Part shown: piece by piece, positions 3,001-6,000 of the stretch
Numbering within the stretch: position 1 is the stretch's first letter
Layout of the letters: every line of letters starts with the position of its first letter
Origin: a virus
Taxonomy: Duplodnaviria; Heunggongvirae; Uroviricota; Caudoviricetes
DNA length: 23,278 bases
Reading direction: 5' to 3' (one strand)
IMG/VR virus record: IMGVR_UViG_2547132127_000004
Program-made: the position numbers

Positions 3001-6000
3001 TTGCCAGTACCGGGAATGCGCCAGCGAATGGCTGCGGGGAAAGCAGAAATTATCCGTAAAACTGTTGCTGCCGAAATGCCAGCGATGCAGTGTCTGCAAC
3101 TGGCAAGAGCAGAGCAACGACGCGGAGCGACGCTGATTGATGGGCAAACGGTAGCAGAAAAAGCTCAAAAGCTATGGCAGGACTATTTACGCCAAAGGAT
3201 GCAGCCATGAATATCGCAATTGTGACAATAAATCAGGAGAATGCCGCAATAGCGAGCTGGCTGGCGGCGCAGGATTTCAGCGGTTGTACGCTGGCGCACT
3301 GGCAAATAGAACCTCAGCCCGTAGTGGCGGAACAGGTGCTGGATGCGATGGTGGAACAGTGGCAGCGAACGCCTGCGGACGTTGTTCTCTTTCCGCCGGG
3401 AACGTTTGGCGATGAACTGTCGACCCGGCTGGCCTGGCGTTTACATGGTGCAAGCATCTGTCAGGTGACTTCGTTAGATATTCCAACCGTAAGCATGCGC
3501 AAATCCCACTGGGGAAATGCGTTAACGGCGACGCTGCAAACAGAAAAACGCCCGTTATGCCTTTCCCTGGCGCGTCAGGCGGGAGCAGCGAAAAACGCCA
3601 CGTTGCCCTCTGGAATGCAGCAACTGAACATTGTCCCAGGTGCGCTTCCCGACTGGCTGGTTAGCACAGAGGATCTGAAAAATGTTAGCCGCGACCCATT
3701 AGCTGAGGCCAGACGGGTGCTGGTGGTGGGACAGGGCGGAGAGGCAGATAACCAGGAAATCGTTATGCTGGCAGAAAAGCTGGGAGCCGAAGTGGGCTAC
3801 AGTCGGGCGCGAGTGATGAACGGTGGCGTTGATGCTGAAAAAGTGATTGGTATTTCCGGACATCTGCTGGCACCTGAGGTGTGCATTGTTGTTGGCGCTT
3901 CCGGCGCAGCAGCGTTAATGGCGGGCGTACGCAATAGCAAGTTTATGGTGGCGATTAATCATGACGCCAGCGCAGCGGTATTTTCACAGGCAGATATTGG
4001 CGTGGTTGATGACTGGAAAGTGGTGCTGGAGGCACTGGTGACAAACATTCACGCAGAATACCAATAACGTGCTGCCGGATGATCCTGCCTACGGTTCTGG
4101 ACTGGGGACCTGTAGGCCTGATAAGACGCGTTAAGCGTCGCATCAGGCGCTGAATGTCGGATGTGGCGTGCGGCCAACAAATCAAAACAAATTCAATTGG
4201 TTACGATTATCCCGTCAAAGCAATTTTTTCGCTAACGTCCAGACTCCGGTATTCGTGGTGGAAAGCGCCACGACACCCGCGTTAATCGCATTACGCGCAT
4301 CTTCTTCATCGCATACCAGCCCGCCAGCAATCAGCGGTTGGCGGATTTTTTCCGTCACCCAGCCCAGCACTTTGGGCATGCAGCCTGGCAGGATCTCAAT
4401 ACAATCCGGATTCGATTGCGCAACTTACTTATCAATGTTGTGAAACGAAATCGAATCAACAATAAACAGGCGATGAATACAGAAAAAAACTTCCGCTCTT
4501 GCCGCTTTTAGCATCGATGCTTTGGTGCTGATAATTCCATCCGCCTCGGTCACCAGTTTCAAAAACTGAATCACCACTTCTTTATTTGACGCGCCTTCCA
4601 GCAAATCAACATGAATAAAAGCATATTTCCCGGCGTTCTTAATCTTTTTAACGATATTACTGATGGTGCAGATATTGCCGTACAACACGGAAATAAACTG
4701 GCATTCAGAATCGATGGCCAGTTGCAGGCTGGCATTATCTTTAACGGCAGCAATCACCGGATTCTGGCGGAGCAGGTGTAAGAGGGGCATAAATTATCCT
4801 TATTATTTATACTAAGTTGGCATTATAAAAAAGCATTGCTTATCAATTTGTTGCAACGAACAGGTCATTATCAGTCAAAATAAAATCATTATTTGATTTC
4901 AATTTTGTCCCACTCCCTGCCTCTGTCATCACGATACTGTGATGCCATGGTGTCCGACTTGTGCCCGAGAAGATGTTGAGCAAACTTATCGCTTATCTGC
5001 TTCTCATAGAGTCTTGCAGACAAACTGCGCAACTCGTGAAAGGTAGGTGGATCCCCTTCGAAGGAAAGACCTGATGCTTTTCGTGCGCGCATAAAATACC
5101 TTGATACTGTGCCGGATGAAAGCGGTTCACGACGAGTAGATGCAATTATGGTTTCTCCGCCAAGAATCTCTTTGCATTTATCAAGTGTTTCCTTCATTGA
5201 TATCCCGAGAGCATCAACATGCAATGTTGTAGGGATGGCAATTTTTACGCCTGTTTTGCTTTGCTCGACATAAAGATATCCATCTACGATATCAGACCAC
5301 TTCATTTCGCATAAATCACCAACTCGTTGCCCGGTAACAACAGCCAGTTCCATTGCAAGTCTGAGCCAACATGGTGATGATTCTGCTGCTTGATAAATTT
5401 TCAGGTATTCGTCAGCCGTAAGTCTTGATCTCCTTACCTCTGATTTTGCTGCGCGAGTGGCAGCGACCGGGTTTGTTGTTATATGGCCTTCAGCTATTGC
5501 CTCTCGGAATGCATCGCTCAGTGTTGATCTGATTAACTTGGCTGATGCCGCCTTGCCCTCGTCTATGTATCCATTGAGCATTGCCGCAATTTCTTTTGTG
5601 GTGATGTCTTCAAGTGGAGCATCAGGCAGCCCCCTCCTTATTGCTTTAATTTTGCTCATGTAATTTATGAGTGTCTTCTGCTTGATTCCTCTGCTGGCGA
5701 GGATTTTTTCGTAGCGATCAAGCCATGAATGTAACGTAACAGAATTATCACTGTTGATTCTCGCTGTCAGAGGCTTGTGTTTGTGTCCTGAAAATAACTC
5801 AATGTTGGCCTGTATAGCTTCAGTGATTGAGGTGTACTGGCAATAGCGGACACTACCATTTGTTCTTTTTTTAAGCAGCCATCTGATGATATTTTTCCCT
5901 GAAGGCTGCCGGGGAGATATTCCCCTGACGAGAGTGACGACGCTGACGATTGTAGAAAATCTCAATGTATTCCCGTATTACTGAGATGGCTTCATCCCGG

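Follow-up and report, generated by a model that had tools for sequence, protein, structure and literature searches.

The window analysed here, a stretch of 23,278 nucleotides catalogued as virus record IMGVR_UViG_2547132127_000004, holds a degraded prophage of the lambda integrase (Int) type. Sequence comparison shows the feature under study to be the left attachment site, attL (B*-O-P'), of this prophage, lying at a non-canonical site between ygcO and ygcP. One int-truncated prophage appears to reside beside ybhC in some Shigella strains and beside ygcP in others, the switch point being exactly the att core. We give a slightly better than even chance to the reading that the attL at ygcO/ygcP belongs to an int-dead prophage, shared with the canonical attB of sister strains, which was relocated by a lambda-type Int acting in trans, likely by excision and reintegration. 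The window itself is part of the chromosome of a Shigella flexneri lineage that includes the serotype 5b strain 8401; in the overlapping parts it is 99.95% identical to CP026799.1, UGYR01000001.1, CP000266.1 and CP037923.1, and CP000266 is the genome of Sf8401 (PMC1550401).

Positions 4803-5829 align with the attP-int region of phage HK97 (L003 1501-2527) with 98.93% identity over 1027 nt, and the corresponding regions of lambda, 434 and HK106 gave match scores close to that of HK97. This bears out the initial annotation, according to which similarity to lambda attP begins at the core, upstream of the ygcP start codon, and is followed by int. The distance given there, about 11 bp, has to be corrected: the att core TTTATACTAA begins at 4806, so that the gap from the start codon to the core is 15 bp, or 12 bp if counted from the alignment start at 4803. 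The features of this end of the prophage are as follows.

4791..4805, no strand: bacterial arm of attL (B*), leftover ygcO-ygcP intergenic bases; K-12 and the empty-site Shigella are identical to it through 4805
4806..4812, no strand: 7-bp overlap (crossover) region with the phage allele TTTATAC; the empty site has TTTATCC, a 6/7 match
4813..4892, no strand: P' arm, 98.9% identical to the HK97/lambda P' arm
4813-4819, no strand: C' core site TAAGTTG, read off the sequence
4841-4853, no strand: H' site of IHF, TATCAATTTGTTG, read off the sequence
4862-4871, no strand: arm-type site P'1, AGGTCATTAT, with C->T at 4868
4872-4881, no strand: arm-type site P'2, CAGTCAAAAT, read off the sequence
4883-4892, no strand: arm-type site P'3, AAATCATTAT, read off the sequence
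4889..5827, minus strand: int', codons 45-356 and stop of a lambda-type integrase gene, which keeps intact core-binding and catalytic domains but has lost the arm-binding domain

The names and positions of the P' arm sites follow the established lambda literature, and the overlap is placed within the lambda core as in Landy 1989. B* takes in the ribosome-binding site of ygcP, AAGGA on the minus strand, as well as CTTATTA, the B-type half-site of the core.

The junction in the window reads ...CCTTATTA-TTTATAC-TAAGTTGGCATT, with bacterial sequence through -3 in lambda core numbering and phage sequence from +3 (4811) on. This places the crossover within the 7-bp overlap or at its left edge, and the heteroduplex at +3 was resolved to the phage allele. 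Since prophage-free genomes show TTATTATTTATCCAAAGCGGTAGG at this point, the junction is a real one inside the att core, and it is what Int-mediated recombination with a secondary site yields. All the parts expected of a lambda-type attL are present: the host junction falls within the 15-bp core and its 7-bp overlap, relatives carry the uninterrupted site, and the P' arm has C', H' and three arm-type Int sites, with a single C->T change in P'1. Like the attP-int module of lambda, HK97 and 434 (heterobivalent tyrosine integrase; attL = BOP'), the window combines this P' arm and the overlap TTTATAC with an int that adjoins attL and is transcribed towards it; over the P' arm and Int residues 45-356 the identity to that module is 98.9% at the DNA level and 99.7% at the protein level. 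Unlike in these phages, the bacterial arm is ygcO/ygcP and not gal-bio (ybhC), int is without codons 1-44, and P'1 carries the C->T change, which is also found in the intact allele of E. coli VL40. A comparison with the phage attP-int-xis region found neither the P arm nor the int 5' end nor xis anywhere in the window.

On the bacterial side the recombining sequence, located between ygcO and ygcP, is CTTATTA-TTTATCC-AAAGCGG, which matches attP at 6 of the 7 overlap positions and at 10 of the 15 common-core positions. The empty site TTATTATTTATCCAAAGCGG, elsewhere written TTATTTATCCAAAGCGG, is found in K-12 and close Shigella relatives. The initial annotation had suggested comparing the ygcO-ygcP junction with prophage-free strains; this recovers an uninterrupted GGGGCAT-AAATTATCCTTATTA-TTTATCC-AAAGCGGTAGG, from ygcP to the ygcO stop codon, in K-12 MG1655 and in four Shigella-type contigs, all four of which carry the same nonsense allele of ygcP (Q122*) as the window.

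Tanouchi and Covert (mBio 2017, PMC5605937) sequenced lambda-chromosome junctions after infection of E. coli BW25113 and reported 304 secondary sites in total. Their Table S1 lists a 'ygcO' site at position 2887536 of BW25113 on the minus strand, ATAAATTATCCTTATTATTTATCCAAAGCGGTAGGTGATGC, found in 8/8 samples; in the whole table this frequency is reached only by ybcW, ygiC and ygcO, besides the canonical attB row (ybhC). The 41-nt 'ygcO' site is identical to the empty site reconstructed here, and its orientation and crossover position are compatible with the attL of the window. The ygcO/ygcP site resembles the core consensus and is used by Int in experiment; it is one of the best off-target sites of lambda, already known experimentally, and the early proposal that the prophage had integrated at a secondary site is well supported. 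The published case is a laboratory lambda infection of K-12, whereas the window contains a natural decayed prophage in Shigella flexneri, the history of which also involves the primary site.

Residues 45-356 encoded by int' differ from HK97 Int by one substitution, A245T, with no stop and no frameshift. The core-binding and catalytic domains are complete, including the catalytic residues (R212, K235, H308, R311, H333 and Y342, numbered as in the literature), and the Pfam Phage_integrase match has E=1.7e-40. The N-terminal arm-binding domain (residues 1-64) is represented only by residues 45-64, and its Pfam model is matched only at profile positions 49-74 of 74. The loss of the arm-binding region claimed at the outset is therefore real, codons 1-44 being gone, and int' is a truncated pseudogene. 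Its open frame runs on into the neighbouring insertion sequence IS600 as far as a TTG at 5965, giving a 358-aa (amino acid) open reading frame (ORF). Three single-nucleotide polymorphisms in int were considered as private to the Shigella prophage; the idea was rejected, as they are present in the intact int of VL40, and an argument against a second phage (see below) was dropped with it. The other side of int' is bounded by the following features.

5828..7091, minus strand: IS600 copy 1 (IS3 family, 1264 bp), matching annotated IS600 in E. coli; its transposase genes are co-stranded with int'
7092..10209, plus strand: far side of the IS600-associated deletion, with a 35-aa ORF (7199-7306) and a 968-aa primase/helicase (7303-10209)

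The initial annotation ascribed the loss of the int N-terminus to an IS insertion. IS600 does stand at the boundary, and it has the expected 1264 bp, TGAGGT... terminal repeats and orfA/orfB, but a simple insertion does not fit: copy 1 is flanked by GAT and GTC and has no 3-bp target duplication. By comparison, a second IS600 copy (20114-21377), 99.8% identical to copy 1, has GTC on both sides and appears to be a simple insertion with a GTC duplication. In intact lambdoid phages the pair formed by the 35-aa ORF and the primase comes after cI-cro-cII-O; the look-up with the 35-aa ORF was unspecific (6101 blocks) and gave the normal gene context, not the Shigella copies. The missing target duplication, together with post-O genes at the far side, indicates that IS600 copy 1 marks a deletion or rearrangement, in which int codons 1-44 and xis were lost along with the early-left operon, the immunity region and most of O.

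A look-up with the 154-aa C-terminal Int fragment led to ybhC, that is, the canonical lambda attB, in many genomes. The same prophage lies beyond ybhC in CP026810.1, CP026871.1 and CP026765.1, which are Shigella-type with ipaH nearby, and in S. flexneri SFBU1023. The alignment of CP026810.1 with the window is unbroken over 4803-9895, across both IS600 junctions, with 7 differences and one 1-nt gap in 5093 aligned nt (99.84%). There are 0 differences over 4806-5879, and leftward only position 4805 and the flank itself differ. The ygcO/ygcP site of CP026810.1 is empty. The ygc-linked arrangement was found in at least four independent assemblies: CP000266.1, CP026799.1, UGYR01000001.1 and JANXIZ010000001.1. 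The int truncation must be older than the difference in location, because independent IS600 events with identical ends on both sides are implausible. The expectation in the initial annotation that an element with a damaged integrase is probably locked in place becomes doubtful, as other Shigella genomes, among them one with an empty ygcO/ygcP site, have the same int-truncated prophage next to ybhC at the canonical attB. In SFBU1023 (CP182556.1, L144 3914-4948) the canonical attL has a run of five instead of six T, and int' shows many private A->G changes and 1-nt indels; these variants look like assembly noise. Four IMG/VR contigs, however, also have the core with five T.

According to the reading towards which we lean, either the ygcP junction or the canonical one would have been made by a lambda-type Int acting on an int-defective prophage. 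Core exchange needs an Int of the lambda type, and as the int of the element itself was no longer functional by then, the enzyme was probably supplied in trans, most likely by a co-resident or superinfecting phage with lambda Int, which would have provided Xis too if excision was involved. The likeliest route would be excision followed by reintegration, i.e., translocation of the element from one of these two sites, primary and secondary, to the other; without help it could not now excise. The distance between the canonical attL and the ygcO/ygcP site in CP026810.1 is 2.07 Mb, and the two have the same orientation there, so that a simple reciprocal exchange between them would delete 2 Mb, which favours excision and reintegration. 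In comparison with Sf301, the Sf8401 genome paper counts one translocation and six inversions but gives no details of them. A move from the primary to the secondary site fits the wider distribution of the ybhC-linked form, and the opposite move would be mechanistically easier; both directions are compatible with the data and we favour neither. In any case, there is no need to read the ygcP junction as the trace of a simple primary infection and subsequent decay in situ.

Several points weigh against relocation by Int in trans. The sequence reached in the ygc-linked lineage, which extends as far as the head genes, includes neither attR nor the ybhC-ybhB attB, so that translocation, duplication and inversion can be told apart only indirectly; an attR at the ygcO/ygcP site was seen only in other hosts. 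An intact int that matches the int allele at 100% is present in E. coli VL40, and the identity of int' therefore does not by itself argue against a second phage with the same int. These Shigella genomes yielded no source of a functional Int of the lambda type. The argument from orientation is indirect, since the chromosome may have been arranged differently when the event took place. Finally, the Sf8401 paper gives IS elements as the cause of the rearrangements and does not say which segment was translocated. In IMG/VR, neither the ygcP-attL junction nor an attR at ygcO nor the variant core TTTATCCAAAGTTGG had a match, and in a homology search the closest representative to the YgcO allele of S. 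flexneri reached 94%, none being identical. The literature on the Sf8401 and S. flexneri 1c genomes contains no description of the window prophage or its site. The natural instance and its two-site history appear to be undescribed in the literature searched, the kind of element and the site being known.

Of the other explanations, the one we regard as the most serious, though unlikely, is that a second, intact phage with the same int allele integrated at ygcO/ygcP while attB was occupied, and that RecA-mediated gene conversion or recombination then copied in the IS600-deleted structure. Intact int genes that are 100% identical over 4806-5829 do exist in the prophages of E. coli VL40 and FDAARGOS_943, the secondary-site lysogens of Tanouchi and Covert also carried lambda at attB (PMC5605937), and two nin-type modules in the window suggest a mosaic or multiple prophages. 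Such a history needs an extra infection and a long conversion tract, however; no second copy with an intact primase was seen in the ygc-linked genomes, and prophages in direct repeat 2 Mb apart would risk a lethal deletion. Orientation also bears on a clearly less probable scenario, an Int-catalysed reciprocal exchange between the canonical attL and the ygcO/ygcP site that produced a large chromosomal inversion and joined ybhC to ygcO. Recombination of attL with attB-like sites can take place at low efficiency, and Shigella chromosomes have many large inversions. The two sites are inverted in K-12 ('+' for attB and '-' for ygcO in Table S1 of PMC5605937), but in CP026810.1 they are in direct orientation, and the expected ybhC-ygcO hybrid junction (GCCTGCTTT-TTTATNC-AAAGCGG) was found in none of the E. 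coli genomes searched.

Marginally less probable again is an origin at ygcO/ygcP itself, with a lambda-type phage that integrated there and was later inactivated in situ by IS600, unrelated to the canonical-site prophages. The junction is exactly as Int-mediated secondary-site integration gives, the site is a proven off-target hot spot of lambda, and independent natural integrations there are represented by E. coli Z1323CEC0013 and a metagenome contig (L173), described below. Both IS600 junctions and about 5 kb beyond them, however, are the same as in the canonical-attB prophage of CP026810.1 (99.84%), which would call for two IS600 events that, independently of each other, ended at the same points on either side, and this is very unlikely; deriving the canonical-site copies from the ygc copy would again need Int in trans. 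We also considered, with very little confidence, that the arm-less Int (45-356) may be transcribed by read-through from the co-oriented transposase genes of IS600, may still act as a core-only recombinase and may be what exchanged the attL of the prophage between ygcO/ygcP and the primary attB. If this were true, it would represent a natural 'simple' recombinase derived from lambda Int. A promoter scan of 4700-7350 gave a site count no higher than in shuffled sequences. That the similarity is native host sequence or chance, and not a prophage junction, has a practically negligible probability: nothing speaks for it beyond the host site's own likeness to the lambda core (10/15 core positions), and 1027 nt at 98.9% identity to phage attP-int, together with the empty sites in relatives, have already refuted it.

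Other uses of the ygcO/ygcP site were found in nature. E. coli Z1323CEC0013 (NZ_CP148427.1; L001 7000-10120, L020 42900-43110), one of 5,426 complete E. coli genomes, has a complete lambdoid prophage of about 50 kb between ygcP and ygcO. Its attL is TTATTA-TTTATCC-AAAGTTGG and its attR CAACTTA-TTTATCC-AAAGCGG, from which an attP core CAACTTA-TTTATCC-AAAGTTG is deduced that has 14 bp in common with the host site. To judge from these sequences, ygcO/ygcP looks like the cognate attB of this prophage. Its core was absent from the phage records and IMG/VR contigs searched, and its Int differs from HK97 Int only by D133N. Like the prophage in the window, that of Z1323CEC0013 has the same insertion point and orientation and a lambda-type Int broken in the arm-binding region; unlike it, it is complete with both att sites, and its int is broken at about codon 38 by a simple insertion of IS100. 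The IS600 boundary at int codon 44/45 (window 5828) and IS100 at about codon 38 (L001 ~8053) are about 25 bp apart in the arm-binding coding region. Interruptions so near to each other in two independent int genes may be a coincidence, or may reflect a recurrent target or selection.

The second case is the metagenome contig OLQN01019108.1 (L173), one of 110 contigs ending in ygcO. It carries a canonical-core attR, GTTCAGCTTT-TTTATAC-AAAGCGG, in which a lambda/HK97-type P arm and core are joined to an E. coli-type ygcO, and it seems to represent an independent natural integration at the same secondary site. A scan of genome contigs gave mostly contaminating lambda DNA, besides canonical attL sites, and all of the IMG/VR matches to the P' arm (n=120) are a canonical attL or attP. 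Intact lambda attP was also encountered in assemblies of Chromatiales, Pseudomonas, Shewanella, Bradyrhizobium, Kitasatospora and others (L141-L159), several of them on contigs of about 48.4-48.5 kb; its presence in such unrelated assemblies is almost certainly due to contamination with lambda DNA.

These data provide a natural counterpart of the laboratory result, since one of the three strongest off-target sites of lambda in K-12 is also used in the wild, with three apparently independent occurrences: in the S. flexneri 8401 lineage, in one of the 5,426 complete E. coli genomes and in one metagenome contig. They also indicate that the loss of its integrase need not tie a prophage to one place, the same int-truncated element being found at the primary site of lambda in part of the Shigella strains and at the secondary site in the rest. 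Of the structural differences among S. flexneri lineages, which are generally ascribed to IS elements, at least one has its breakpoint at an att site. The understanding of the lambda integration mechanism is unchanged; the element is of an ordinary kind with a modestly interesting history.

The host part of the window reads, from left to right, IS1 end, ygcU' (truncated), ygcS, ygcR, ygcQ and ygcP, followed by phage DNA. An IS1 end at 1-168 cuts ygcU short at the left edge. The gene next to the junction is

4215..4790, minus strand: ygcP pseudogene (host), with an ORF at 4425-4790 of 121 aa and CAG->TAG at codon 122

and its start codon occupies 4788-4790 (CAT on the plus strand, ending at 4790). 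The alignment with K-12 ygcP shows C364T, i.e., Q122*, with the stop codon at window 4425-4427, and 0 indels. The 121-aa product is common to Shigella genomes with and without the prophage. The junction cuts ygcP off from ygcNO; no phenotype is expected from this separation, because ygcP is already a pseudogene in the empty-site strains.

Beyond IS600 copy 1, the primase/helicase has 968 aa, compared with 626 aa in the same context of other lambdoid prophages. The additional ~340 aa separate the Toprim part from the P-loop part and match the Hint (379-424) and LAGLIDADG (579-634) models, so this insert is probably an intein with a homing endonuclease. The remaining window is an IS-ridden lambdoid mosaic with NinB/NinE, a toxin-antitoxin pair, ash/rha, O-like/DnaC/DnaB, Q and a lysis cassette. 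There are two nin-type modules (10559-11142 and 16441-17017), with NinB/NinE before and NinH/Q after a replication module, and a HigBA-like toxin-antitoxin pair (Gp49/HTH_3; 11184-11712, minus strand) lies between them. The remnant would thus be a mosaic or come from more than one lambdoid phage. Lambda-type head genes are located just outside the window, and the look-up with a 70-aa ORF (21794-22006) reached the capsid gene E; that with a 117-aa ORF (22173-22526) gave no match. Another 70-aa ORF (22678-22890), by eye a possible small-terminase fragment with no Pfam match, is cut by an inverted 186-bp IS600 end at 22881-23066 (region 22678-23066), and a further IS3-family transposase fragment occupies 23067-23278.

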